A stretch of 64,000 bases of DNA from Nitrospirota bacterium (GTDB lineage Bacteria; Nitrospirota; UBA9217), in the NCBI GenBank assembly GCA_963737155.1, contig CAVTRN010000002.1, positions 1,184,001 through 1,248,000 on the forward strand, read 5' to 3'. This document shows positions 29,506-47,796 of this stretch, piece by piece. The translations under genes and the position numbers were made by a program. Position 1 is the first letter of the stretch. Each line of letters opens with the position of its first letter. The notes beneath the pieces were generated by a model, which worked only from the letters and a program-made list of their open reading frames with translations, was not told the origin of the DNA and did no database searches.

Positions 29506-30189
29506 TTACTGCGTGGCCCCTTCCAGATGTAATCCTGTTTCGAAAGAATTGTTTCCGAGCGGTTTGGTCCAGCGCACGGACGCAGGGCGTGAGGGATGTG
29601 TTTTATCGGAATGAATTATGGTGACGGTCTGATGTAACCATAAGGGCGTAGAGACTTTTAAGCCGAGACCGGAAGGGCTGCAATTCATGGCAACACCGGT
29701 TTCGATGTCGGAGGTTGGGGCCGTTTGGAATGAAATCTTGAGATTGCAGGGTTGACGTTTTTCATTTCTGGCGAGACCCAGAGGTTTCGAAAGGTCCATG
29801 CGCTGTTCGCACTGGTCAAACCACATCGCAAGCCGAGAAAAGTTGATGGGCTTCTCGAAAATCGTATAGCCCAGTTGCTTCAGGTTGGACCGGTTGAGTC
29901 CGTCGAAAGAGCCGATAATGAGCGCTATATTCATCGGTGTGAATTTGCAGTGTTGCGCTGTTAGCATTTTGATCAGTTCGGTGCCGGCCATTTTGGTTAT
30001 GCTGAAGTCAATGAGCATGATGTCGGCACAAGGATATTTAATGTTGCACTCTGCATTGTCCATGTACACCGGGCAAATTAAAGGTTCTCGGTATGCAAAG
30101 AAGTCATAACCGCGCAGACCGAGAAACATTTTTAGAAGACCCGTAATGACTACATCGTCTCCAAAAATAATAGCTCGTTTTCTTCTCAT
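29506..30189 (-). CDS. Receiver-like domain plus PilZ domain protein
   Basis: REC-like N-terminus (FGDD, MLID, FEKP) with a Cys-rich insert; PilZ motifs RNEKR and NCSPSG. Confidence 0.75.
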   Translation of the reverse strand: MRRKRAIIFGDDVVITGLLKMFLGLRGYDFFAYREPLICPVYMDNAECNIKYPCADIMLIDFSITKMAGTELIKMLTAQHCKFTPMNIALIIGSFDGLNRSNLKQLGYTIFEKPINFSRLAMWFDQCEQRMDLSKPLGLARNEKRQPCNLKISFQTAPTSDIETGVAMNCSPSGLGLKVSTPLWLHQTVTIIHSDKTHPSRPASVRWTKPLGNNSFETGLHLEGATQ

Positions 30190-31790: not shown

Positions 31791-32528
31791 ATGCGAACAG
31801 CGGTAATTTCGGATATTCATTCAAATCTCGAAGCACTGACCGCAGTGTTCGATCGGATCAGGACGCTGCGGGTGGATGAGACGGTCTGTCTGGGAGACAT
31901 TGTAGGGTATAATGCCAATCCGAACGAGTGTATCGACATCCTGCGCAACAATAATGTCCTGTGCGTGCTCGGCAACCACGATGCCGCAGCATCAGGACTG
32001 GAAGAGCCAGATCGCTTCCATCCGCACGCGCGTACGGCCGTTCTTTGGACTCGGGAACAGCTCACTGGAGAAAACAGGCAGTATCTGATTGCATTGCAGC
32101 GTGAACGACCTGTTCGTGATTTCTACCTCTTTCATGGCTCTATCCATGATACTAACCGCTATATTCTATACCGAAACGACGTTGTCGAAAATTTTCGCGA
32201 GCTTGCACATCTGCGCCAATCACCTGACCTTGGTCTTTTCGGTCATACTCACATCGTAACCGTTATCAGCGAACAGTATGGCATCTACGCGACGTCGCTC
32301 AATCACGAGGACCTGATCCTGCAGCCAGGCGTGCGATATCTGATCAACCCAGGGAGCGTAGGGCAGCCGCGCGACAGCGATCCCCGTGCTGCGTTCCTTG
32401 TTTATGATGACAGCAGCCGGAAAATCAGCTTTCATCGCGTAAAATATGACTTGCAGCGTTGTCAGGATAAAATCATCAACGTGGGCCTGCCTCCTCAGCT
32501 TGCGGAACGACTCGCCTGGGGAAGGTGA
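31791..32528 (+). CDS. Metallophosphoesterase (calcineurin-like)
   Basis: SDIHSN, LGDIVGY, GNHD, HGS, GHTH, NPGSVGQPRD. Confidence 0.92.
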   Translation: MRTAVISDIHSNLEALTAVFDRIRTLRVDETVCLGDIVGYNANPNECIDILRNNNVLCVLGNHDAAASGLEEPDRFHPHARTAVLWTREQLTGENRQYLIALQRERPVRDFYLFHGSIHDTNRYILYRNDVVENFRELAHLRQSPDLGLFGHTHIVTVISEQYGIYATSLNHEDLILQPGVRYLINPGSVGQPRDSDPRAAFLVYDDSSRKISFHRVKYDLQRCQDKIINVGLPPQLAERLAWGR

Positions 32529-32949
32529 CTGAAGGGAAAAAACACAATGGTCAGTGGAAACAGGATAGATAAGGCAGGCTATCACAGCTTCGCGATGACA
32601 ATATTTGAGACCGATGTCGTTGAACCGATTATTTTGTACTACACGAATCTCTGCGTGGTTAAAGCTGACAGCGTTCGGTGTCCAGAGGGAGGGGCTATGG
32701 CGAAGACTGCGATGGGAACCTTACAGCCGACCTTTAAAATACTGAATCCAAAAGTCAGATATGCTGAGGAGACTACGTGGAAGTGATAGCCCTGGAACAG
32801 GAGTATTTATAATCCCTTTTTCTCAGGAACAAGGTGAATGCTTAATTTGGCGGAAATGACCCCACTCGGGTAGGGGTGCTTGTAGTGAAAAGCGCCAAAA
32901 CTGATTGTGGAATTCGGGTTGAGGAAAGCACTTCCTCAATATCCCACTG

Positions 32950-33435
32950 TCCTAGTGCAGCAAGACAGATTATGCTTCGGAGAAGCGCAGTTGTTCCCAA
33001 ACCTCTTTGCAATCGGGGCATACCACCTCGTCTATCTCTGAGTCGAGCTTATTTTTTATAACCTTCGGAATACAGCCCTATTTTAGTGGATAGAGTATTC
33101 AAAAGCAACTGGAATCCTGAAGGCGGTGTTCCAGCGCGATCCAGAGGACAGTCCCGCAAATTTTGTCATTCCGGCCAGCGCCAGTCTGGACCATTCTCAC
33201 CGGTGGCTCCTGGTTATACCGGCGTCCGATGCTATTCATGCGCGACGCATGCCGAGCCTATTGGCCTTCTCGCCGATGGGTGCAACGAGATTGTCGCTGT
33301 CCAGGACTTTTAAAAAAAAGATTGGAGCATGACGACCGATGCTGATTTCGGAGAACTTGCCGCAGGGATCTTGAAATCGATCGAGCTATATGAAAGTCTG
33401 ACTATTTGGGCTTCAGCTATTTCGTATCCTCAGTG
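32950..33435 (+). pseudogene. Heavily decayed gene, probably the C-terminus of a class I SAM methyltransferase
   Basis: Fragments across frames (FVIPASA, YRRPM, IELYE, SDYLGFSYFV) resemble methyltransferase tails; many frameshifts. Confidence 0.35.
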
Positions 33436-33591
33436 AGACGACCTCTTTTGGGGGAGGAAAATTGGTGGCGGCAAATATCAAAGTTCACCATAAGTGGGGA
33501 ATGCCGTTCTCCTGTCATACTCCTGATTTTCTATGCGCATTATATCCGTCATGTTCTCAAAAATGAGCGGACGAATGTATTCACGGTACTG

Positions 33592-35766
33592 TCAAATAGT
33601 AAGAGAGGTTCTTGTTTTTGCATCAAGAATCCGACGAACCACAGAGAGCAAGTAGGGAGATTCAAAAGGCTTCTTCATGAAACCGTCAATTTCCCGAATA
33701 CCGTCCTTATCCGCTATATACTTTGCGTGACCAGACATAGCGATAATTTTTATTTCGGGCTTTATTTCTTTGATCTGTCTGATGAGCTCCATGCCGTCCA
33801 TGTGCGGCATGGCGATGTCAGTAATAACGAGCGCTATCTCCTGAGGAATTTTTTTGAAAATGCTGAGCGCGCTGGGGGAATCGCTTATGGCGAATGTTTT
33901 GTAGCCATGGCTTGCTAGTGTCTCCTGGACTGTGTTGAGTGTCGTCTTTTCATCATCGACAATGAGCAACGTCTCATTTCCGCCCACGGAATTAAGCGAT
34001 TCCTGCTTCTGCACGAGGGCTGCCGTATGCGAAGCGGGCAGGTAGATGCTAAAGAGCGTGCCAGCACCAGGTTCGCTCGCGACCGTGATATACCCCTTAT
34101 GCTCTTTGACCGCTCCATACACCATGGAAAGGCCCAAGCCGGTGCCCTTTCCCCGCTCTTTCGTAGTGAAAAATGGTTCGAAGATTTTATTTATGGTATC
34201 CTTAGGGATTCCCAACCCAGTATCTGAGAGACTGAGCATGACATACTCCCCCGGCAGTATGTAGGCCGGGATGTTCGGCATTCCCTGCCCGACGTCCACA
34301 GCGGAGGTTTTGATTACGATTCTCCCTCCTTTCGGCATGGCATCCCGGGCATTGATGATAAGGTTCATAACGATCTGCTCTATTTGGTTGGTATCACCCA
34401 GAATGGGCGCAATATGGCTGTCGAGCTCCACAGTCAGTTCTATGTTTTTGTCGATGACCCGCTCGAGGAGCTTGAGCGTATCGTACACCACGTCGTTGAG
34501 TTGGAGTGGCACGAACTCATACTTGCTCTTGCGCGCAAAGCCCAGCAGTCTTGAGATCATTCTCCCCGCCCTTCGCGAGGCGTCTTCGATCACGCCGAGG
34601 CTGTTTGTCGACTTTACATCTAATACGGAATTTCTGCGAATGATTTCCGCATGGCCGAGGATGGCCGTCAGAATATTATTGAAATCATGGGCGATACCGC
34701 CTGCGAGCACGCCTATGGACTCCATCTTCTGTGACTGGGACAGGTGCTCCTGAAGTTTTTTCCTCTCCGTAATGTCACGGTAAAAGGACTGAATGAACGT
34801 TTCATTGTCGATAGTAATCGATTTTGCGCTGACCTCAAGATCGATGGCGGCGCCATCCTTTTTATTATGTCTGGTTTCGTACACAAGGGTTTCTCCGGCT
34901 AAAATCCGGCGCATCCTCTCCACCATCTTTTCCTTATTGCTGCCTGTGTCCTCTAACAGTTTTATGTGTGTACCTACCAATGTCTCGCTGTTGAAACCAT
35001 GCATCTCACATGCCTTCTCATTTGTTTTGACAATGACACCGTTCTTATCGAGAATGACGATGCCATCCGTCGCATTCTCAAAAAGCGACCGATGCCACTG
35101 CTCGGATTTGTTTAAATCTTGTGTCCTCACCGCGACCAGATCTTCAAGGTGTAGTGAATACTTTTCAAGCTGCTCTTTGTCTTTTGAAAGATCATATTCG
35201 AGAGAAAGGTTTTTCTGTACAAGGCTATCATTATAATATCGCCAGAATATTCCGATGCTGGCTGTGGCGAGTAAAAAGACGTTGTTATTGATAAAAACTT
35301 TTAAGTTTGTAATATTGTCAAGGACTAAGATGGGTAGTAAATAGGTGAGATATGTTATGGCGGCCAGCGCTACGGTGGTTTTAATAGAAAAAAGCGGCAG
35401 AAATCCGAGGCAAAATATTAGAGTAATAATTATTCCTGCGTAATAAATGGATTGATGAGCGCCAAAAGAAAGGACCATCAGTTCCACCGTAATTGACGCA
35501 ATGAGAGTCCCTACGATAAAAATGCTTATTTGATAAAGTTTATTTGTTTTCTGTTTGTTCAGGTAATAAATGCAGATGAACAAAAAAGCTGCGCCCAATC
35601 TGTAAGTGAGAAATCTTAGGAAGTTCTCTGGCGTCACAAAATAATCTAAGAGGCTCAAAAGAAGAAAAACGGCAGCTCCGCCGATAAGAGCGATCCCTCC
35701 CCAGTGTTGGAGTATTTTCAAAATTTCTTGTTCTACGTATATTTCTTTATCCGTTTTCTTTTTCAT
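33592..35766 (-). CDS. Membrane-bound hybrid histidine kinase (multi-TM sensor, PAS, HisKA, HATPase, REC)
   Basis: About six N-terminal TM helices; PAS (LFENATDGI); H-box LAGGIAHDFNN; NARDAM; FEPFFTTK; GTGLGL; REC VDDE/ITDIAMP/KKPF. Confidence 0.93.
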   Translation of the reverse strand: MKKKTDKEIYVEQEILKILQHWGGIALIGGAAVFLLLSLLDYFVTPENFLRFLTYRLGAAFLFICIYYLNKQKTNKLYQISIFIVGTLIASITVELMVLSFGAHQSIYYAGIIITLIFCLGFLPLFSIKTTVALAAITYLTYLLPILVLDNITNLKVFINNNVFLLATASIGIFWRYYNDSLVQKNLSLEYDLSKDKEQLEKYSLHLEDLVAVRTQDLNKSEQWHRSLFENATDGIVILDKNGVIVKTNEKACEMHGFNSETLVGTHIKLLEDTGSNKEKMVERMRRILAGETLVYETRHNKKDGAAIDLEVSAKSITIDNETFIQSFYRDITERKKLQEHLSQSQKMESIGVLAGGIAHDFNNILTAILGHAEIIRRNSVLDVKSTNSLGVIEDASRRAGRMISRLLGFARKSKYEFVPLQLNDVVYDTLKLLERVIDKNIELTVELDSHIAPILGDTNQIEQIVMNLIINARDAMPKGGRIVIKTSAVDVGQGMPNIPAYILPGEYVMLSLSDTGLGIPKDTINKIFEPFFTTKERGKGTGLGLSMVYGAVKEHKGYITVASEPGAGTLFSIYLPASHTAALVQKQESLNSVGGNETLLIVDDEKTTLNTVQETLASHGYKTFAISDSPSALSIFKKIPQEIALVITDIAMPHMDGMELIRQIKEIKPEIKIIAMSGHAKYIADKDGIREIDGFMKKPFESPYLLSVVRRILDAKTRTSLTI

Positions 35767-35812
35767 GCAATAACTCGTTCTAACATGTAAGTTGCATTAT
35801 ACCATGTTTTCC

Positions 35813-37225
35813 CTAGACTTGATGGTTCTTTATTATTGATTTTGCGAGGTCATAACCCAAGTAAACTACCCCAGCAAGACCTTGTGCATATGTCGTCCAA
35901 TGACCCGTCAAATAAAGTCCATGAAGAAAAGACGGCTTTCTGAAATCAGGGTCTAAAAATTGTTGCTGAATACTCTCCCACCCGTAGGCGGCTCCTTGAT
36001 CATTTAAGGTATATCTGTATAAGGTGTAAGGTGTTGCCGCTTCTTTATAGATGATGTGTTTTGATAATCCCGAAATTGTAGTCTGCTCAATGCTTGTTAT
36101 GAATGTTTCCAACAATGTTTTCTTATTTTTATTCCAATACCGTTTATCCTTAAATGATGTATTTGCCATTGCTAAAATACTTTTCCCATCTGGTGAAACG
36201 CGAAAGAGGTACTTTGTCAAGTCGGTTTCATTGTTTTTATTTGCTGTTACATACATTTTATCTAAATCATAGTGAGGCAAGAACCAAAGCGTAGACCCAG
36301 GTCTGGGTAAGGAATCGAAATAATTATCAACACCTAAATATGCAATAAACATCGAGAGAGTCGGGGTCATCATATTTAGCTTATCAATAAGTCGTCTACT
36401 TATTTTATTTATTCCTATAAGTTTGAAAAAAGTTTGTTTTGCATCACAGTTTGAAATTACAACACTTGATCGTATCACCATGCCAGTTTGGAGAACCACC
36501 CCCGATACTGCATTATTCTCTATTTCAATTTGCGTCACGGGGGAGGATAACAACATGACGCCACTAAACTCTTTAAATCGTTCCGCAAAGGTGTCCGGCA
36601 ATGTCTGCATACCGCCTTCTGGATAATAACCACCATCAACGACAAATTCAGTGAAAATTTTAGACCCAGTAAAGGCGGACATTAACGACGGCGGCAAACC
36701 CCCGTTTACGAATAATTGGAAAGACAGGATAGCTTTTAATGTTTTATCTGTAAAATACTGGTCTAAGAAATCCTCAAATGTTTTATTGCGCAATGCCGCC
36801 ATGTCCACAGGTTTTAGGTTAGCTATGAAGGTAATAAAGTCTCTGATCCTTGGTTCAAAAGGAAAGACCTTTTGAAGCTCTTGAATGGTTTTATCTAGGT
36901 CGGCCCAGAAGGTAATCTTATAGTCGGGCGTAATGATAATATCTGATGGATCATATCTCTTAATTTTTATTCTTGCATCTAAACCCAGTTCTTTAATCAC
37001 GGTATTGAAATTACCACCTTCACGATAACTGCCAAAAGAGTGCGCGGCAGCATCGAAAGTAAACCCTTTCCGCTTGAAAGAGGTACAATATCCTCCGGGC
37101 TTATGATGTTGTTCTGCAATGAGCACCTTCAACCCTGCCTTTGCAAGGTAGCATCCGCACACAAGGCCGCTCATACCCGCACCAATTATCACGATATCAT
37201 AAATATCTTTATTATCCTTTAACAT
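35813..37225 (-). CDS. Phytoene desaturase (CrtI)/retinol saturase-like FAD oxidoreductase
   Basis: IGAGMSGL, EQHHKPGGYC.SF.RKGFTFD, YYPEGG, ATPYTLYRYT, GAAYGW, GLYLTGHW. Confidence 0.88.
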   Translation of the reverse strand: MLKDNKDIYDIVIIGAGMSGLVCGCYLAKAGLKVLIAEQHHKPGGYCTSFKRKGFTFDAAAHSFGSYREGGNFNTVIKELGLDARIKIKRYDPSDIIITPDYKITFWADLDKTIQELQKVFPFEPRIRDFITFIANLKPVDMAALRNKTFEDFLDQYFTDKTLKAILSFQLFVNGGLPPSLMSAFTGSKIFTEFVVDGGYYPEGGMQTLPDTFAERFKEFSGVMLLSSPVTQIEIENNAVSGVVLQTGMVIRSSVVISNCDAKQTFFKLIGINKISRRLIDKLNMMTPTLSMFIAYLGVDNYFDSLPRPGSTLWFLPHYDLDKMYVTANKNNETDLTKYLFRVSPDGKSILAMANTSFKDKRYWNKNKKTLLETFITSIEQTTISGLSKHIIYKEAATPYTLYRYTLNDQGAAYGWESIQQQFLDPDFRKPSFLHGLYLTGHWTTYAQGLAGVVYLGYDLAKSIIKNHQV

Positions 37226-37478
37226 TTACTGGATTGACCTGGTTTATTAATCTATTTACCAGTTCCACGGCTTCTTTCACTGTAGTAATTTTGGGGACAT
37301 CTTCATCTCTTATAGATATTTTAAATTTTTTCTCAATTGCCACTGTGATCTCGATAGCTTTAATAGAATCGACTTCCAGGTCTTTAAAAAAATTATTCTC
37401 TGGAGTTATCTCATCCTCATCAAATCCTGAAATATCAGAGATAATTGAGACTATTTCTTTTTCAACATTTGCGGCCAT
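37212..37478 (-). CDS. Acyl carrier protein
   Basis: Acidic 88-aa protein with a DLEVDSI phosphopantetheine Ser motif. Confidence 0.92.
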   Translation of the reverse strand: MAANVEKEIVSIISDISGFDEDEITPENNFFKDLEVDSIKAIEITVAIEKKFKISIRDEDVPKITTVKEAVELVNRLINQVNPVNVKG

Positions 37479-37497
37479 TGTTATCTCCTCGTCATCC

Positions 37498-38706
37498 TTA
37501 ATAGAAAAATTTTTTTAAGACCAGGCAGGCATTATTGCCGCCAAATGCATACGAGTTATTTAGGGCTATTGTGACAGGATGTCTTCTCGACTGGTTTGGT
37601 ACACAGTCAAGATCGCATTCCGGATCGGGCGTTTCGTAATTAATGGTTGGAGGAATAATATCATTTTTTACAGCAAGTGTGCAAGCGATTGCCTCGATGG
37701 CTGATGCAGCGCCCATTGTGTGGCCGAGCATGGATTTGATGGAACTGACCGGTATCTTTTGATAACGCGAGCCGAATATTTCTTTAATCGCGGCGCACTC
37801 GTTTCTATCATTTGTTAGTGTACCTGTTCCGTGCGCACTTATATAGTTAACTTCCTCAATTGCGATGTTTGCTTCTCGCATTGCTTTCTTCATACATGCT
37901 GCTATACCCTCAATAGATGAAGAAGTCATGTGAAAAGCATCGCAACTGAGTCCATAGCCCAAAACCTCGGCATAGATAGGCGCATTCCGTATTATCGTAT
38001 TCTCCAGAGACTCCAGAATAAGGATTCCTGCTCCTTCAGCCACCATCATGCCTTTTCTATTCTTATCAAAGGGCTGACATTTATCAGGAGCAACGGCAGA
38101 AAACTGATTGAAACCAGTGAAGGCGATTCTTGAAAAAGAGTCTGACGCGCCGGCAATCACCATGTCTGCTCTGTTTAAACGAATTAAATCATAACCATAA
38201 CCTAAGGCATAATTGCCTGCTGCACAGGCAGTAGAAAAAAGAACGTTCGGGCCATCAAGGCCCAATTCTTTGGATATTATCGCGGATGCGCTGTTAACGG
38301 GAAGTTGACATATGAGATCTCTTGTTAATTCTTCATTCTTGATTAGTTTGTCATTAATATGTTCGATAACTTGAATCGGCCCTGATGTTATGCCGATGCA
38401 GGTGCCGGTCTTCGCACGAGAAAAGTCTTTTTCAGATAAACTGGCATCCTTAATGGCAAGTTTTGCTCCTGCAAGCGCCATTTGTGATGACCTGCTTAAA
38501 GTATTAAGGCTATCTTTTGGAATAAAGTCTTGAGGTCTGAAGTTTTTAACTTCACCGCCATTGTGGGTGAAATGGTTGGTGGTATCAAAGGACGTTACAG
38601 GGCTTATCCCTGTTTTTCCGTTCAAGAGATTTCCCCAGAATTCTTCCCAGCCGATACCGATTGAGGAAATAACGCCAAGTCCTGTTATGACAACCCTCTT
38701 ATTCAT
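37498..38706 (-). CDS. Beta-ketoacyl-ACP synthase (FabF-type, catalytic)
   Basis: Cys-His-His triad intact: STACAAG, SAHGTGT, LGHTMGA; NSYAFGGNN. Confidence 0.93.
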   Translation of the reverse strand: MNKRVVITGLGVISSIGIGWEEFWGNLLNGKTGISPVTSFDTTNHFTHNGGEVKNFRPQDFIPKDSLNTLSRSSQMALAGAKLAIKDASLSEKDFSRAKTGTCIGITSGPIQVIEHINDKLIKNEELTRDLICQLPVNSASAIISKELGLDGPNVLFSTACAAGNYALGYGYDLIRLNRADMVIAGASDSFSRIAFTGFNQFSAVAPDKCQPFDKNRKGMMVAEGAGILILESLENTIIRNAPIYAEVLGYGLSCDAFHMTSSSIEGIAACMKKAMREANIAIEEVNYISAHGTGTLTNDRNECAAIKEIFGSRYQKIPVSSIKSMLGHTMGAASAIEAIACTLAVKNDIIPPTINYETPDPECDLDCVPNQSRRHPVTIALNNSYAFGGNNACLVLKKFFY

Positions 38707-39139
38707 TTTTTACGCTGAATACCAGCTCCGCCTCTGTTATCTTTTTGTCGTCGACAAATGCTTCGCCCGACACATAAGCGCCGGTTGGTAGAGATTTGAC
38801 GTTTTCAACCCTAATTTTCAATTGGTCGCCCGGAACAGCGGGGTGAAGAAATCGTGCCTTGGCAGAACCGAAGTAATATATAGGTTTTTTCCCCGCTTCC
38901 TGTATTTCTTTACCCGTGGCAAAAAGGATAATTGCTGCTTGCGCCATTGCTTCGAGAATGAGGGCGCCGGGCATGATGGCCTTGTCGGGGAAATGGCCAA
39001 GAAAAACCATATCATTGCCTGAGATATTTTTCACGGCAATGACACGTTTTCCGGGTTCGATTTCCAGTACCCGGTCGATCATGAGGAAAGGAAACCGCTG
39101 GGGCAAAATTTTTTTTATCTCTTCGAAGTCAAGTTGCAT
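38699..39139 (-). CDS. 3-hydroxyacyl-ACP dehydratase (FabZ-like)
   Basis: LPQRFPFLMID and FLGHFP..AIMPGALILEAMAQ (His/Glu dyad). Confidence 0.92.
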   Translation of the reverse strand: MQLDFEEIKKILPQRFPFLMIDRVLEIEPGKRVIAVKNISGNDMVFLGHFPDKAIMPGALILEAMAQAAIILFATGKEIQEAGKKPIYYFGSAKARFLHPAVPGDQLKIRVENVKSLPTGAYVSGEAFVDDKKITEAELVFSVKNE

Positions 39140-39142
39140 CGA

Positions 39143-40378
39143 TCATCCTTCGTAACTACCTAGTACAACGGCGGAGTTCTGTCCGTATGGATCAGCGGAG
39201 GTCACGAGCACGTTCTTTATGCATTTCTTTCTCGCTTCGTTCGGGACATAATCAAGATCGCACTCGGGATCTTTTTCCTTATAGTTTACGGTAGGGAATA
39301 TCATACCATTATGTATAGCGCCCACACCAGCTGAAAGGGATAGAGCACCGGAAGCAGAAAAAGACTCCCCCACCATGGATTTTACTGAGCTTACAGGGAT
39401 CGTGTATGCATGTTGCCCAAAAACTTCTTTTATTACCATTGTTTCCATCCTGTCAAGACCCCTAGTTGAATTGGAACAAGCACTTATAAAGTCAACGGCT
39501 TCAGGCTTGAGGGAAGCATCCCTTAAAGCAGATATAATGGCATTCTTTAAACCTTTTCCCGCATGATTGAAGTTGCTATGTGTTGCAGGATCAAAGGCAT
39601 TTCCGTAGCCCAAGATTCTTGCAAGGATGTTGGTGCCCCTTTTAATTGCGTGTTCTTCATCTTCAAGCACCAGCACCCCCGCACCTTCAGAAAGCAATAC
39701 TCCGTTCCTTCTCTGATCAAAAGGACAGCAGAGAGGCTCTGAGCCGTCTGTCCCAGATAAACAGCCGAGCTCATGGAAGCCCAGAAAAGTCTCTTGGCAC
39801 AGCTCTTCAACCCCGCCTGCAAGTATGACATTCGCCCTATTTAATTTTATAAAATCTGCGGCATAGGCGATAGTATCGAGGCTTGCGCAAAAGCCGGTGG
39901 ATATTGTGGTGTTGAACCCTTTAATTTTAAAACGAATGGAAACCTGGCTGGCAGGGGAATTTATGACGGTGTTCGGAAAATGCGAGGGATTTACAAAGCG
40001 CGGCCCATCGATGAGACTGGTCCGATCAAACTGGGAGATGCTGTGGAGACTGCCGAAGGTTGTGCCGATAGAAACGCCTATGGCAAGAGTATTGTTCTCC
40101 GTAATCTCAAGCTTGCTATCGTCTATGGCCATTTTAGCTGCAGAGCATATTAGCCTAGTACTCCTGTCGAGATCCCGCAACCCTTTCTTGCCGAGAAGAG
40201 AAAGAGGATCAAAGTCGGCTAGTTCACCGGCACAGTGGACTTGAAAGGGTTCTGTATCGAATAGCGTTATTTCCTGGAACCCTGTTTTCCCCTGGAACAG
40301 CCCTTCCCAGTAGTTATCCCGGCCTATACCGATGGGTGATAAGACTCCTATGCCTGAGATTACGACAGTTCTTTTCAT
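39143..40378 (-). CDS. Non-catalytic ketosynthase homolog (chain-length-factor-like)
   Basis: Full KS fold, but triad positions read STGFCAS, SACSNST and VGESFSA. Confidence 0.85.
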   Translation of the reverse strand: MKRTVVISGIGVLSPIGIGRDNYWEGLFQGKTGFQEITLFDTEPFQVHCAGELADFDPLSLLGKKGLRDLDRSTRLICSAAKMAIDDSKLEITENNTLAIGVSIGTTFGSLHSISQFDRTSLIDGPRFVNPSHFPNTVINSPASQVSIRFKIKGFNTTISTGFCASLDTIAYAADFIKLNRANVILAGGVEELCQETFLGFHELGCLSGTDGSEPLCCPFDQRRNGVLLSEGAGVLVLEDEEHAIKRGTNILARILGYGNAFDPATHSNFNHAGKGLKNAIISALRDASLKPEAVDFISACSNSTRGLDRMETMVIKEVFGQHAYTIPVSSVKSMVGESFSASGALSLSAGVGAIHNGMIFPTVNYKEKDPECDLDYVPNEARKKCIKNVLVTSADPYGQNSAVVLGSYEG

Positions 40379-40384
40379 CCTGTT

Positions 40385-41152
40385 TTAAATCCCCAATCCT
40401 CCGTCTACTTGTATTACTTGCCCGGTGATATACTGAGATGCATCGCTCACTAGGAATACTACAGCCTGCGCCACCGCCTCCGGCGTGCCGAATTTACCCA
40501 ATGGGATCATCTTCGTGACCTTCTCTTTGTATTTTTCAGTAAATGCCGCTGTCATGTCTGTAGCCACAAAACCCGGAGCAACGGCATTAACCCTGATATT
40601 ATACGGCGCCACCTCTACTGCCAACGATTTAGTAAAGCCGATCACTCCTGCCTTTGCAGTCGCGTAATTGACCTGGCCCGGAAGTGGATGAATACCGCTG
40701 ACGGACGAGATATTCACGATGTTTCCGCTTTTTTGCTTCAGAAATGTAATAATGCAGGCGCGGGACGTATTAAAAACGCCTGTAACGTCTGTGTCTATTA
40801 CCTCGGACCAATCCTCTTTATTCATCATCATTAGAGATTTGTCGCGTGTTATGCCTGCGTTATTGACAAGGATGTCGATCCTTCCGAATTTCTTTTTTAC
40901 CTCTTCTACAAACGTTTTTGCACCTTCAAAATCCCTCACGTCCAATTGAAAAGGCGTTGCCCTCCTGCCCATGTCCTGAACTTCTTGTGCCAATGATTCT
41001 GCTGCAATTGTATTTTTTGTATACGTGAATGCGCAATCAGCACCTTCACGGCATAGTGAAAGTACGATAGAGCGGCCTATGCCCCTTGTCCCTCCCGTTA
41101 CGATAGCTACCTTATTGAGAACTAAATTCTTTTCCATGCCGCGCATGCTCAA
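40385..41152 (-). CDS. 3-oxoacyl-ACP reductase (FabG-like SDR)
   Basis: TGGTRGIG, NNAGITRD, NISS, YATAK, VDGG. Confidence 0.92.
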   Translation of the reverse strand: MSMRGMEKNLVLNKVAIVTGGTRGIGRSIVLSLCREGADCAFTYTKNTIAAESLAQEVQDMGRRATPFQLDVRDFEGAKTFVEEVKKKFGRIDILVNNAGITRDKSLMMMNKEDWSEVIDTDVTGVFNTSRACIITFLKQKSGNIVNISSVSGIHPLPGQVNYATAKAGVIGFTKSLAVEVAPYNIRVNAVAPGFVATDMTAAFTEKYKEKVTKMIPLGKFGTPEAVAQAVVFLVSDASQYITGQVIQVDGGLGI

Positions 41153-41707
41153 TGTAACATAACTTTAAACCGTAATCAATAGCAATAACTGGGCCGTGAG
41201 AGCGGCATTTCCAATGTGCACTACGGCTTTTGACATTGCTTCCTTTTTCTGAAATATGAATCTGCTCAGGAGGCAATAGAAGAGGTAATTAACGGTTATC
41301 TAAAAGACTCTCAGGTGGAGAAAATATCGTTGCGGTATTGCTGACCGGGTGGGGGATGATAATACAGTACTGAAAATAAAACTTGTCTTTCACCGGATTG
41401 TGGGACAAAGCGCTCCCTTCGCTGTAGGACATCATTACTGAAAAAATGCCAGTAGTTGGCGCAGAATAGTATTCGTACTCTTCAGTCGTTTCGTTGACAA
41501 GTCGATTAACCCGACGTGTATGTTTTTGGGTGAGGATAAGGCCTGTGCAGTGCGGCCTTGATCGAGGTGGGTATTTTGATCATAAGCTGCTTGTTTGCTT
41601 AGGTTCGGTCTGTTTTTAAACTATCGACACGCTTTGCCTGGAAGAGAAGGATTGTACCTCTTCCTTTTCGCTACAAGGATACCTTCCCCGCAATACGTGC
41701 AGAACAT

Positions 41708-42760
41708 TTAATACTGAGTAGCAGTATAAAAGATTATTGAACCCGATTTTATGCGGGTCATAGATAATGCACTGCCGGGGATTTTTGCTTGACGGAACAA
41801 CCTGTCAAAATCCTCCTGTGTACGCTGCAAAAAGCCATCCCAGTCAGCGAGCCAATGGTAGCCTTGCGACCGGTAACGGGTTGCATCCTTAAAAGCCGCG
41901 ATAAGCTTTCCCCCTGGGTTTAGCATCAGATAGAGAGTATTGAGCAGTTTCGCAAGAAAATCATCGGCCAGGTAATCGAAATATCCAACGCTGTAAATGA
42001 TATCTTGCATGCCGAATGCAGACACCGCGGTCTCGTAGTCGAACATTCTGAGGGCATTATATTGGATAAATTCAGCCCGATCTGACGAGAGGCCTGCATA
42101 GGATAAACGATTGAGGGCGAAATCGAGGGCTTCAGAATCTAAATCGATACATTTAATGTGGGCACCGGATTTTTCAATTTCCGGAACTATTTCATGCACC
42201 TCACGGCATGAGCCACAGGCGATATCGAGGATCTTCGGATGTTGTCTGCTCAGAAGCTCTGTTTTCAATAACTCAGCCAGCTTTTGCATTCTTTCTCGCA
42301 CCCCTACTGCAAGGGTTGTAGAAAGCATATATTTATCGAGATAGTATCCTATCCCTTCCGACGTCGGTGTATTCCTGTATAAGAATTCTATTGTTTTGTA
42401 GTCTCCCTGGTATCCTTGAGGCCATGTTCGGGCCCGATTTACACCGTAGCTTTTTGACATTATTGCGTCTGTCTTATCGCGGAAAGCAACCTGTGCAGCG
42501 CTGATTGCAGCTTTAATCCCGACGACCTTCTCGAATTGTTCACAAACCTGAAGCATTGACTCATTGAGCGTTGTAAGGTCCTGCATGATACTATCAGGGT
42601 CTTCTTCTGGCTTATTGCATCTCCGTTCGATGTCACGAAGTGCATCCATATACTGGTCCGTCGTCGCTTCTAGATAAGCGATATGTTTTTCGCTTTCCTC
42701 TCCGACAAGCAAAGTGTTTTCTTTAATGTCTGCGTTTCCAAAACTCCATGAATCGACCAT
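41708..42760 (-). CDS. Class I SAM-dependent methyltransferase, PhcB-like
   Basis: RARTWPQGYQGDYKTIEFLY segment, SAM motif ILDIACGSCRE, CIDLD, DIIYSVGYFDYL, LNPGG, W....RT. PhcB similarity is from recalled family motifs. Confidence 0.8.
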   Translation of the reverse strand: MVDSWSFGNADIKENTLLVGEESEKHIAYLEATTDQYMDALRDIERRCNKPEEDPDSIMQDLTTLNESMLQVCEQFEKVVGIKAAISAAQVAFRDKTDAIMSKSYGVNRARTWPQGYQGDYKTIEFLYRNTPTSEGIGYYLDKYMLSTTLAVGVRERMQKLAELLKTELLSRQHPKILDIACGSCREVHEIVPEIEKSGAHIKCIDLDSEALDFALNRLSYAGLSSDRAEFIQYNALRMFDYETAVSAFGMQDIIYSVGYFDYLADDFLAKLLNTLYLMLNPGGKLIAAFKDATRYRSQGYHWLADWDGFLQRTQEDFDRLFRQAKIPGSALSMTRIKSGSIIFYTATQY

Positions 42761-42813
42761 CGCATCCTCCTGGCAGCAAAATAGGAATGGATAAACAGAA
42801 CACGGTTACCGCA

Positions 42814-42840
42814 AAATAATGCATGAAATCATGCTTATTT
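42814..42840. promoter_or_regulatory. Palindromic operator-like site upstream of the methyltransferase
   Basis: AAATAA-T-GCATGA-AA-TCATGC-TTATTT. Confidence 0.4.
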
Positions 42841-43021
42841 GTGAAATCTAGTTCGGGATAATCATTTTTTTACTATAAATATTTCCAAATCGCTTCAGTG
42901 ACTAGAGAAATATGAAATGTTTTATAGATATCCGAACATCACGGAACGTCAAGATTGCAAGATTCAATTGTTTGTGAGAATAAAGCGGAAACTTTACCTT
43001 ACATCCTGCTACGTTTCGCAT

Positions 43022-43050
43022 AGATTAATATAAACTCATATTCATGTCAA
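43022..43050 (-). promoter_or_regulatory. sigma70 promoter candidate for the methyltransferase
   Basis: Minus strand reads TTGACA-17 nt-TAATCT within an AT-rich intergenic region. Confidence 0.45.
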
Positions 43051-43366
43051 GAAACAAAATGAATAACTTCTATAACATGATACTTAGGTAGTAAATTATA
43101 ACATTAATTGTGATTTATTAACATTAGCATATCGACTTACCGTTTTGAAAACGTGAAAAAACACTACCAGGGATAAAATGTAATTTATTTCAGGCAAATC
43201 TTCCTTCTATTCCATCAAGTAACGGTTCGAATAAAGAATAATATAATTTCCACTTAAGGCAATGCAATGCCAGTAACATTGCACGCTATGGAGTTTAATC
43301 CAGCTGTCGCAAAGCCGATGGTCATGACTTATGGCTCGAATGATAACGGATCGTCTCCAACATCAT

Positions 43367-45562
43367 TTACTCGGAAAAGCGGCCTAGGCTGGTGAGTGGT
43401 TCACGCGGGGAGAGCTTGCCCATTTCGACTTTCCGCAGCATACCATTTTCCCCATGAAAAAAAACGGTCAGGGAAGACGCTCCAACGGGCCAGCGGCCTT
43501 TCGCCACGTTTACTGGTTCTGATCCTTCAAAGGCAAGGTAACTGTACTTGTGATAATGAGCGAGCTTGTTCGCAAGGCCGATCAGCGAGAGGGGATTGTC
43601 TGAGGCGATCAGGCTCAGCGGCATGTTACGATTTCCCGGGAATCGCGCCGTGAACACAAAAGAGTGGTTACTGTTCGGGATCGACGTTTTGCCGATTCGT
43701 ACTTGATTCGTGCTTAAGGTGACATCATACTCCGATACCGCCTGGATGGCATGTGCCGCGAAGCGGTTCTCCCATCCGATAACCGTTATAGCGCGGTCCG
43801 TCGGCAGTTCGATGAGATCGGTGTCTAGTTTCACCGTTGCCTCGTCTGGTCCCGATTGGGCCAGTGATTGCGCGAAAATCCGGTACGCACTGAGGAGGTC
43901 TCGATCAGCCTCCGTAGGAAGAATGATTAACATCTTTTTTGAGCCCAGAGCCTGTGATATGGCTGGGGGGATTTCTTCACGGCTGAGCCTCCTGAATAGA
44001 TCGAATTCGGGGTCAATGTCGAGTCTAAGCGGCTGTGCCGGAAGGGAGAGTTTCAGTTGCGCTATTTTACCGTCCATGCTGATCGTTGTCTGGAAAGCCT
44101 GCACCTGTCCCTTGAGCGTCACAGCAACAGGAATCCGCAGGTGATATGCGGCACCGGCCTGGACCTGTTCAATGGTAGCGGAGAGAGAGAATCCACTCCC
44201 TTCTGCAATTTCGGAAGTCTTGCCCAGTTTCAACTGCGGCGCTCCTGTCCAGTTCACCCACTGATTGAATTCCGGTTTCAGGTCTTTCCCGGAAACGGCT
44301 TCGAACGTTGACCTGATGTCCTCGAAGGCGGCGTAATGAAATTTGTACTTCCTGTAAAATTCTTGGAGCCCCTTCTTAAATACGGGATCTCCTAGTTTAC
44401 TACGTAGCATGTGGAAAAACATGAGCGCCTTGCCATAGCCGATCGCTTCGGTGGATGGATCGTGTCTGAATCGGAATTGCGTAAGGGCGAAGTCCTTGCC
44501 GCCGCGCACATAATCGGCATATTTCTGCAGCGTATCAATGCGGAATTCGGTCCCACCGCCCTGCTGCTCACGCATGAGATGATCGGCAAGGTAGGCCGTG
44601 ATCCCCTCGGACCAGTTACCTTTTTCGTAGACAGGATACACGCTGTTGCCCCACCAATTGTGCAGGATCTCGTGGGGATAGGAAGTGTTGATGATAAAGG
44701 GCAAGCGGATGACTGTGGGACCCAATAGCGTGAACGAGGGCATGCCGAAGCCGGTTTCCCAGAAATTTTCGACAAGAGCGAATTTCTTATAAGGGTAGGG
44801 GCCTATGAAACCGCTATACATCGAGATATAGCGTTCCGTTGCATTGAGGTACTTGTTTGCCAGGTCTTTGTCGGGTGAACGCAGAAAGACCATGGCCTGG
44901 AGCGGGCCAAACGACCTTGTATACTGGGTAAATATCGCAGCAGCCAGGTAGATGGATTCCTGCGGTTCCGGCGATTTCCAGCGCACGAGGGTGGAGAGCG
45001 TGCCCCGGTCATGATGGGTGCACTCGCCCTGACTGACGGCATCCCACGACCCCGGCAGCTTGACGTCAAGATCGAATGTCAACAGCGTTGATCCGAAGTC
45101 AGGGTACCAGCCCGAGGCGCCCGATAGGTAAACGCCCGAATCGGATATCGTGCCAGGTGTGTCCTGAAATCCCTGCGCCTGTATCCCGCTTTGTATCTCC
45201 AGGGGATGGTTTATGACCCCTGCATAGGAAATCGTAAACGAATGGAGTCCAGGAGGTAGTATGACCCGATAGGACTCGAGCGGCACAGCCTCATCTCTGT
45301 TTCCCTCCTTCACGATGCGAACAAGGGGTGAAGAGGAGGTCGGGTTCAAACCGCTGTGCAGAAGGAAGACGGCCTCCTGGGGGAAATCTCCGGGAAAGGT
45401 AACGGAGTCCACGACCGTGATCCGATGTGCGGTAGGGGCAAGAATGATGCTCAGGTCATGGTGGATCAATTCAGATGCGCCGAGAGAATGAGGCAAAAAT
45501 GTAAGGAGAAAAAACAACGCAAGTATAATATATTTTATAATCATTGTTAATTGTCTCCTCAA
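43367..45562 (-). CDS. Secreted M1-family zinc aminopeptidase
   Basis: Signal peptide; PYPYKKF; GFGMP; HEILH...WSEG zinc motif; YGKALMFFHML. Confidence 0.88.
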   Translation of the reverse strand: MRRQLTMIIKYIILALFFLLTFLPHSLGASELIHHDLSIILAPTAHRITVVDSVTFPGDFPQEAVFLLHSGLNPTSSSPLVRIVKEGNRDEAVPLESYRVILPPGLHSFTISYAGVINHPLEIQSGIQAQGFQDTPGTISDSGVYLSGASGWYPDFGSTLLTFDLDVKLPGSWDAVSQGECTHHDRGTLSTLVRWKSPEPQESIYLAAAIFTQYTRSFGPLQAMVFLRSPDKDLANKYLNATERYISMYSGFIGPYPYKKFALVENFWETGFGMPSFTLLGPTVIRLPFIINTSYPHEILHNWWGNSVYPVYEKGNWSEGITAYLADHLMREQQGGGTEFRIDTLQKYADYVRGGKDFALTQFRFRHDPSTEAIGYGKALMFFHMLRSKLGDPVFKKGLQEFYRKYKFHYAAFEDIRSTFEAVSGKDLKPEFNQWVNWTGAPQLKLGKTSEIAEGSGFSLSATIEQVQAGAAYHLRIPVAVTLKGQVQAFQTTISMDGKIAQLKLSLPAQPLRLDIDPEFDLFRRLSREEIPPAISQALGSKKMLIILPTEADRDLLSAYRIFAQSLAQSGPDEATVKLDTDLIELPTDRAITVIGWENRFAAHAIQAVSEYDVTLSTNQVRIGKTSIPNSNHSFVFTARFPGNRNMPLSLIASDNPLSLIGLANKLAHYHKYSYLAFEGSEPVNVAKGRWPVGASSLTVFFHGENGMLRKVEMGKLSPREPLTSLGRFSE

Positions 45563-47109: not shown

Positions 47110-47796
47110 GTGAAAAAGATTCTCGTTTCCAATACGTTTAAATCGATGCTCAGGGAAATAAATTTCATGCAACGGACTGGCGTGAAGTTGTATAGTGCGA
47201 CGAGCAACGATGAGTTTCTCTCGGTCCACCGGTCTGAAAAAGTGGATATTATCATTTACTCCCTTGATGCATCGGGGGCAAAACCAGAGGACCTTTTTGC
47301 AGAGATCAGGAAGGATGTGGAGCTTCGCAAGGTCTCCCTGATAATGACTTGTCATGATAAAACAGCTGATAAGGCTCGCGCGGAAAGGTGCAGTCCTAAC
47401 GCGATTCTGACTCTGCCAGTGGATGTCCGGCGTCTAGTCGAAAAATTACAGCATTTTTTGAATATTCCCACCCGGGAATCGTATCGCGTTCTTCTGAGCG
47501 TGAGCATCAACGGTTACAGCAAGGACCAGGCTTTTTTCTGTCGCTCCGAGAACATCAGCGCAACGGGGCTTCTTCTAGAAACGGATCGAAGCCTGCAGGA
47601 AGGCGACCGGTTGACCTGCTCGTTCTTCCTTCCCAGATCTCAACAGATCACCGTTCCAGCTGAAGTAGTTAGGAAAATAGTTCAAGCCGACAAACCCGGA
47701 CCGAAGCGGTACGGCGTTAGGTTTGGAAAAATGAATATCGAGACCAGAAATGCGATAGAATCTTTCGTTCAGAAGAAGTCACGGAAGTCTGCCTAA
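47110..47796 (+). CDS. Degenerate receiver plus PilZ domain protein
   Basis: REC-like fold lacking the phospho-Asp pocket; PilZ motifs RESYR and NISATG; YGVRF. Confidence 0.8.
   Translation: MKKILVSNTFKSMLREINFMQRTGVKLYSATSNDEFLSVHRSEKVDIIIYSLDASGAKPEDLFAEIRKDVELRKVSLIMTCHDKTADKARAERCSPNAILTLPVDVRRLVEKLQHFLNIPTRESYRVLLSVSINGYSKDQAFFCRSENISATGLLLETDRSLQEGDRLTCSFFLPRSQQITVPAEVVRKIVQADKPGPKRYGVRFGKMNIETRNAIESFVQKKSRKSA

Follow-up and report, generated by a model that had tools for sequence, protein, structure and literature searches.

Phc cell-cell signalling has been described as a speciality of Ralstonia, and homologues have been reported from Cupriavidus and Paraburkholderia. In this system (phcBSRQ and PhcA), the methyltransferase gene phcB lies upstream of the sensor kinase gene phcS, the signals are methyl 3-hydroxymyristate (3-OH MAME) and methyl 3-hydroxypalmitate (3-OH PAME), and it is the sequences of PhcB and PhcS that group according to the type of signal. 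Cluster I of the anammox bacteria (kustE3603-3608) encodes amxACP, amxFabZ, amxFabF2, amxFabFmut, a phytoene-dehydrogenase-like protein and a B12 radical S-adenosylmethionine (SAM) enzyme. It has been called unique to ladderane producers, its link to ladderanes is unproven even in anammox bacteria, and ladderane-like clusters of unassigned function are known in other phyla. The published sources drawn on are few (bioRxiv 10.64898/2026.05.19.726425, 10.1101/2022.12.20.521206, PMC10139942, PMC4790861, PMC2649909, PMC11960443, PMC6989110, PMC7912708, PMC13220807, PMC9102662). Relatives of both systems meet in one operon of a Nitrospirota bacterium, on a 64,000-nucleotide stretch of contig CAVTRN010000002.1 (positions 1,184,001 to 1,248,000; hereafter the window). 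We consider it probable, with real room for doubt, that this operon encodes a system for Phc-type signalling between cells in which a private anammox-type synthase supplies the acyl chain, the product likely being a short-to-medium modified fatty-acid methyl ester. No description of such an operon was found in a literature search that was short on most subscription journals.

The eight open reading frames (ORFs) are intact, and all lie on the minus strand within 33592..42760 by a coordinate check of the window. They are listed below in order of transcription together with the domains of the kinase and one candidate upstream element; locus counts refer to 34 full-length loci in other genomes.

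43045..43050, minus strand: TTGACA hexamer, candidate promoter element about 285 bp upstream of the methyltransferase gene; invariant in 7/7 aligned upstream regions
41708..42760, minus strand: PhcB-family class I SAM methyltransferase, 350 aa; Pfam Methyltransf_20/12/25, HHalign to PhcB-type protein
40385..41152, minus strand: FabG-type ketoreductase; TIGR01830 above cut-off, 26/34 loci
39143..40378, minus strand: chain length factor (CLF) of amxFabFmut type; catalytic triad lost, clade with the Brocadia copy, 34/34 loci
38699..39139, minus strand: FabZ dehydratase of amxFabZ type; tunnel Ile, PDB 7qv0/8ay* best matches, 25/34 loci
37498..38706, minus strand: active ketosynthase (KS) of amxFabF2 type; C161/H292/H329, clade with the Brocadia copy, 34/34 loci
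37212..37478, minus strand: dedicated acyl carrier protein (ACP), DSI motif; PF00550, 32/34 loci
35813..37225, minus strand: CrtI-like flavoenzyme, variable tailoring slot; PF01593, TIGR02734 below cut-off, 28/34 loci
33592..35766, minus strand: hybrid kinase, whole gene, last of the operon
35197..35766, minus strand: six-helix, hypervariable membrane sensor domain of the kinase; PhcS type by HHalign, six helices in the structure model
33592..35196, minus strand: PAS, HisKA, HATPase and receiver domains of the kinase (Pfam)

The seven genes from fabG to the kinase are tightly coupled (fabG-CLF 6 bp, CLF-fabZ 3 bp, fabZ-KS overlap 8, KS-ACP 19, ACP-crtI overlap 14, crtI-kinase 46), and the methyltransferase gene is set apart, 555 bp upstream of fabG across a poorly conserved spacer. 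An alternative fabG start at ATG 41146 or 41137 is possible. An initial annotation, made from the letters of the window, had described eight co-oriented genes with a tight fabG-to-kinase block, had assigned their families, and had reported no thioesterase, ligase, enoyl reductase, FabD or FabH. The coordinates bear out the arrangement, and Pfam and NCBIfam searches of the eight proteins agree with the families and with each of these absences; Pfam likewise found no acyltransferase or lipid-attachment gene in the operon. A scan of 32400-43500 against Rfam gave no riboswitch or non-coding RNA match at E<=0.5, and the promoter scan result was at chance level.

The methyltransferase is a relative of PhcB. 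The reference set for this comparison came from a primer in PMC11960443, which led to 15 metagenome loci, of which 11 contain the complete methyltransferase-kinase pair; these loci are treated as phcBSRQ because residues R22 (PhcB) and L161 and H230 (PhcS) of locus L192 match the published positions (locus, genome and contig numbers of the L, G and C series are our own). The one Ralstonia-type locus listed in full has two receiver-domain genes behind the pair. Against the C-terminal domain of PhcB, the window methyltransferase gave an HHalign probability of 99.5% (E 4.4e-23), and a hidden Markov model (HMM) comparison matched at E 1e-32 to 1e-36 on 11 full-length copies. The homology spans the whole catalytic domain, with shared P-x-GY-x-GDY and G-x-FDY motifs and residues W307 and R313; the enzyme is the only significant PhcB match in its genome and a reciprocal best match. 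This genome holds one methyltransferase of the PhcB family and one PhcS-type sensor domain, and several methyltransferase homologues carry the JGI annotation 3-OH PAME biosynthesis protein. No close solved structure was found for the enzyme; its nearest solved folds, tied at 16-17% identity, are the uncharacterised 3ocj (Z 22.0) and the C-methyltransferase SgvM (Z 21.8). Ralstonia PhcB has a ~130-aa N-terminal extension that the window enzyme lacks. Many relatives in the loci examined are also extended at the N-terminus, by a PilZ domain in the two checked (L053:8370-9668, L088:7818-9230), which hints at cyclic di-GMP control of those enzymes.

The membrane domain of the kinase shows a corresponding relationship to PhcS. 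It matched a PhcS-type protein by HHalign at 98.4% (E 4.6e-15), with HMM matches at E 1e-27 to 1e-31, and G30, D41-Y42, R56, G103, S106, Y108, G111, P124 and Y139 are common to both. Like the methyltransferase, the sensor is a reciprocal best match in the genome of the window: the PhcS sensor of L195 finds the window sensor gene there as the sole significant match, and that of L192 finds it weakly (E 0.14). The structure model consists of six helices (mean predicted local distance difference test score, pLDDT, 95) and matches 8wcn, 8sl3 and 6r3q at Z 15.7-16.6, the next row standing at 9.8, with a root-mean-square deviation of 3.0-3.5 over ~200 residues. These best matches are the six-transmembrane anchors of ImcA and of membrane adenylyl cyclases, at 11-17% identity. 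Such cyclase anchors reportedly share their design with a Vibrio quorum-sensing receptor. The common six-helix fold places the sensor beside the lipid-signal receptors and anchors as a group, the likeness being to ImcA and the cyclases, with CqsS of Vibrio outside the comparison and no ligand implied by the fold.

The operon thus shares with Ralstonia Phc a homologous methyltransferase and sensor, their order, and a hypervariable sensor block. In contrast to phcB and phcS, which are adjacent, its methyltransferase and kinase genes are separated by six others; PhcS is a non-hybrid kinase with separate regulators, PhcR and PhcQ, whereas the window kinase is a PAS-receiver hybrid; and the host, to judge also by the source names given for close homologues, is a member of the Nitrospirota rather than Ralstonia. 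Judged from sequence comparison, the operon appears to work like Phc yet is not phcBSRQ. The resemblances to PhcB and PhcS proposed in the initial annotation are therefore upheld by the two HHalign comparisons, and its claim of a new quorum-sensing system holds as far as a Phc-type methyltransferase and sensor with a co-conserved synthase; together these make a variant within Phc signalling rather than a system of a new kind. We regard this conserved variant, with its putative private anammox-type acyl synthase, as real.

The relationship of the synthase cassette to anammox Cluster I had been overlooked in the initial annotation, and by clade and residue it is a close one. The KS groups with its Brocadia copy (53% identity) with a support of 95 in the SH-like approximate likelihood ratio test (SH-aLRT) and the CLF with a support of 100, both apart from housekeeping FabF; the KS keeps Cys161, His292 and His329, all three of which the CLF lacks. 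Tunnel residues F135/T138/V139 of the CLF and residues A164/F203/M337/F394 of the KS are invariant in 43/43, while KS positions 110 and 112, whose numbering is uncertain, vary. The Gly-to-Ile tunnel change that marks amxFabZ (PMC10139942), an enzyme described as preferring chains up to C8, is present in the window and in 33/35 FabZ proteins (2 not scored). The ACP and the CrtI-like protein are each 36% identical to their Brocadia Cluster I counterparts, the ACP being shorter, by eye, in the region of the long 3-10 helix of amxACP. The best PDB matches of the cassette, 9s5h and 7qv0, are probably anammox proteins. The differences are that the cassette adds FabG, methyltransferase and kinase to the Cluster I set, that its gene order and host differ, and that it lacks the B12 radical SAM gene; no methyltransferase match was found in the two Brocadia genomes searched. 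Among the loci, a B12 radical SAM gene was seen in L153 only, between ACP and crtI of a methyltransferase-kinase operon (L153:2257-3639, G242:C24; 27% identity to the Brocadia Cluster I enzyme).

The second-best PDB match of the KS is 6kxd (E 1.3e-104), the Iga11/Iga12 pair of the highly reducing type II polyketide synthase (PKS) for ishigamide. As in the window, that system combines KS/CLF with a ketoreductase, dehydratase and ACP and has no enoyl reductase; unlike it, the window operon is coupled to a sensor. We take ishigamide assembly to rely on a starter ligase and on offloading of the nonribosomal peptide synthetase type, neither of which is present in the window operon. A polyene product is no more than possible, since fabG is missing from 8 and fabZ from 9 of the 34 full loci. 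Three other products were considered for the cassette and rejected. For a carotenoid pigment, the CrtI-like protein falls below all carotenoid-family cut-offs, prenyl genes are missing from the operon, and its homologue in anammox bacteria is reported to make no lycopene. Housekeeping fatty acid synthesis is served by a separate fabH-fabD-fabG-acp-fabF cluster and a fabZ elsewhere in the genome. The gene list of aryl polyene clusters includes a ligase, acyltransferases and glycosyltransferases, none of which is among the eight genes.

The arrangement is conserved across many Nitrospirota families. A methyltransferase profile (E<=1e-10) had matches in 82 of 301 Nitrospirota genomes, and DNA was taken around 89 methyltransferase places, a few weak or fragmentary matches being left out. 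Setting aside 11 distant homologues and one PKS fusion left the 77 closest loci, whose counts are not independent because the genomes are kin. A sensor kinase directly follows the methyltransferase in 22 of these (layout A; 20 PhcS-type, as in Ralstonia, and 2 7TM-type), and the full cassette plus kinase in 34 (layout B); a further 12 carry the cassette but show no kinase, 10 of them at contig ends and 2 in split operons, and in 9 the contig ends within 700 bp. Thus, all 68 informative loci carry a kinase (22) or the cassette (46) directly downstream and none an unrelated gene. The recurrence of the layout in 34 full-length loci of other genomes is not chance. The initial annotation had tied its proposal to co-conservation of methyltransferase, synthase genes and kinase, and the three do travel together. 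Within the full loci, fabG, fabZ and crtI are each missing from 6-9 of 34. A search from the CLF side (80 loci sorted by hand, 14 more distant ones set aside) gave the same picture for Nitrospirota-type cassettes, with the methyltransferase upstream in 40/45 and the kinase downstream in 28, the remainder ending at contig edges.

In a quick tree of 71 methyltransferase domains, all 43 from layout B fall into one clade (SH-aLRT 98) among the 20 from layout A, and the other 8, which are distant, lie outside. Since layout-B enzymes are a single clade within the layout-A pairs, the simplest reading is that the cassette was inserted once into an older methyltransferase-kinase pair. Residues F240, D241, F268, F318 and Y345 are fixed in this clade and peculiar to it, and none of its 43 members has reverted to the bare pair. 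Variants occur at several loci. In L047, L177 and L215 a PhcB-family methyltransferase precedes a 7TM-type kinase in place of a PhcS-type one. Omnitrophota-type KS/CLF cassettes in L093, L108, L112 and L115 have no methyltransferase and adjoin HisKA_7TM proteins; some of this set also encode NAD-binding proteins, presumably acyl-ACP reductases.

A possible course of synthesis and sensing can be outlined from these relationships. First, the KS/CLF pair would prime itself by decarboxylating malonyl-ACP, the malonyl group likely being loaded by housekeeping FabD; such self-priming, shown in vitro for the anammox pair, would account for the missing FabH. FabG and FabZ would then process the early cycles to give a partly unsaturated chain of about C8-C12, possibly with its 3-hydroxyl kept. 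A short-to-medium length is predicted because chains no longer than about C8 suit the amxFabZ-type tunnel best and because C8 gave the best crosslinking of the anammox pair, which converts malonyl-ACP to acetoacetyl-ACP. Double bonds or rings may next be altered by the CrtI-like flavoenzyme or, at some loci, by a radical SAM enzyme; release of the chain and methylation of its carboxyl by the methyltransferase would then yield a neutral, membrane-permeant ester. On binding this ester, the six-helix sensor would signal via the hybrid kinase to a regulator not linked to the operon.

The release step is hypothetical. The substrate of the methyltransferase could be the acyl-ACP or a free acid cut by a thioesterase acting in trans, and four 4HBT thioesterases are encoded elsewhere in the genome. 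Methylation by SAM requires a free nucleophile, so hydrolysis would have to come first or be coupled to it. Three loci met along the way bear on this step, two of them fusions found incidentally. A PhcB-family domain stands at the C-terminus of a 2514-aa KS-AT-KR-DH type I PKS (L048:9316-16860, G007:C266), another ends the last KS-ACP module of an assembly line on an Enterobacter plasmid, in the usual place of a thioesterase (L049:9841-12978, NZ_CP134637.1), and L184:6805-11502 (G179:C40) holds an independent KS-ACP-methyltransferase-HisKA_7TM kinase set whose KS lies outside the anammox-type clade. Taken together, these arrangements speak in favour of the methyltransferase acting at the ACP.

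The sensor is hypervariable. Between the window and its nearest relative, L131, identity is 85-91% in the methyltransferase, FabG, CLF, FabZ, ACP and kinase core, 57% in CrtI and 54% in the sensor. In Ralstonia-type loci, the C-terminus of PhcB and the PhcS sensor form the variable block and show the same dip in identity. Covariation was measured on loci with full-length genes only. Across cassette loci, sensor identity hardly follows that of its own PAS and kinase core (rho 0.16-0.17). With the kinase core held fixed, it follows CrtI (partial rho 0.46, p 0.001, n=27), and values for the methyltransferase, FabG, CLF, FabZ, KS, ACP and PAS do not exceed 0.14; dropping three near relatives gave 0.43 for CrtI and 0.19 (p 0.04) for ACP. 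In layout A, the sensor tracks the methyltransferase (0.40, p 0.007, n=16). All ten well-supported sensor splits conflict with the methyltransferase and own-kinase trees and five recur in the CrtI tree; L135/L156/L157/L161 is an example of a cross-family group common to the sensor and CrtI trees. The pattern of exchange, with sensors decoupled from their own kinases as in Ralstonia-type loci, is well supported, and it is plausible that CrtI is the specificity gene. In locus L099 (5282-6607), a radical SAM gene, HemN-like by eye, occupies the crtI slot before a PhcS-type kinase.

A number of observations weigh against parts of this reading. Three of the ten sensor splits conflict with the CrtI tree; the covarying partner is always the gene just upstream, being the then-adjacent ACP in the eight crtI-less loci (rho 0.49, p 0.03); the part of CrtI nearest the sensor covaries most strongly; and the window itself is a mismatched case, its CrtI grouping with L071 and its sensor with the crtI-less L136. 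The link between sensor and CrtI may thus be hitchhiking by adjacency. Identity between the methyltransferase and PhcB is ~25%, and the operon has no phcR/phcQ-like regulator. All 21 Omnitrophota/Planctomycetota-type cassette loci lack the methyltransferase, so the cassette has uses outside Phc signalling. The anammox KS/CLF pair stopped at acetoacetyl-ACP in vitro, with no further elongation reported. Finally, a review has PhcB making its esters 'from the cognate fatty acids', and the operon lacks a thioesterase.

Some of these points would suit a cassette that makes a cell-bound specialised lipid akin to the Cluster I product, capped by the methyltransferase and with the kinase monitoring the cell's own membrane, without any cell-cell signal. 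The closest studied relatives of the cassette are proposed lipid (ladderane) enzymes, the B12 radical SAM gene of L153 fits such a role, and the cassette occurs elsewhere without the methyltransferase. We nevertheless consider this explanation unlikely, given that the operon has no acyltransferase or lipid-attachment gene, that by established chemistry a methyl ester is not acylatable into phospholipid, and that a hypervariable, exchanged sensor suits kin discrimination better than homeostasis.

Alternatively, the methyltransferase and kinase could be an ordinary Phc pair acting on housekeeping 3-hydroxy fatty acids, with the cassette as co-transcribed cargo or output. The 22 bare pairs, the 555-bp gap before fabG, the confounding of the sensor-CrtI link by adjacency and the division of the operon in two genomes would all be in keeping with this. 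Yet both split genomes retain the KS part (KS-crtI-kinase in one, KS-ACP-crtI to the contig end in the other), two genomes (G001, G007) hold both layouts, and the cassette clade, with residues of its own, has never returned to the bare state, making this explanation distinctly unlikely. A small acyl signal that is made and sensed but methylated at carbon or hydroxyl while ACP-bound and released by an unlinked hydrolase is quite improbable. In its favour, SgvM ties with 3ocj among the fold neighbours and the genome encodes 4HBT thioesterases; against it, these neighbours are just 16-17% identical, and homology to PhcB extends, motifs included, across the entire catalytic domain.

Should the Phc-type reading with a private synthase be true, a mostly uncultured phylum would gain a new class of signals with a readable sensor, and a compact set of genes related to Cluster I, with a product that could be captured as a volatile ester, would offer a direct route to the unsolved chemistry of the ladderane cluster. 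A bolder extension, which we rate as possible though doubtful, is that Nitrospirota use dialects of lipid-ester signals on an anammox 'ladderane' core, in which a swappable tailoring slot (CrtI-like, HemN-like or B12 radical SAM) would be paired with a matching sensor and PhcB-family methyltransferases would offload from the ACP. The agr and comQXP pherotypes offer a parallel for a tailoring slot that travels with its sensor. If this extension were true, anammox Cluster I would be one offshoot of a wider family of signal and lipid cassettes, with a chemistry solvable outside anammox bacteria.

Several further observations were made in passing. Plasmid searches returned no PhcB or PhcS record; a distant methyltransferase homologue (L050:3691-6906, NC_008378.1) occurs on Rhizobium plasmids, and in the single record inspected its gene runs divergently from a GGDEF-EAL gene. 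Two receiver-PilZ-like fusion proteins lie near the operon in the window (47110-47796, PilZ by Pfam; 29506-30189, no family) and were not seen among conserved operon neighbours. Within the housekeeping fab cluster of the same genome, acyl-CoA-dehydrogenase-like and electron-transfer-flavoprotein-like ORFs, so identified by eye, stand between fabH and fabD (L212, G000:C2:1406000-1417000) and could possibly provide an alternative enoyl reduction; no FabK was found above cut-off in the genome, no family search for FabI having been made. A second small cluster (L211, G000:C2:672900-677000) combines an ACP and a KS with radical SAM-like and type III PKS-like ORFs, the latter two by eye. In Brocadia, exosortase and DUF3485 genes precede Cluster I (L102:5431-6911).

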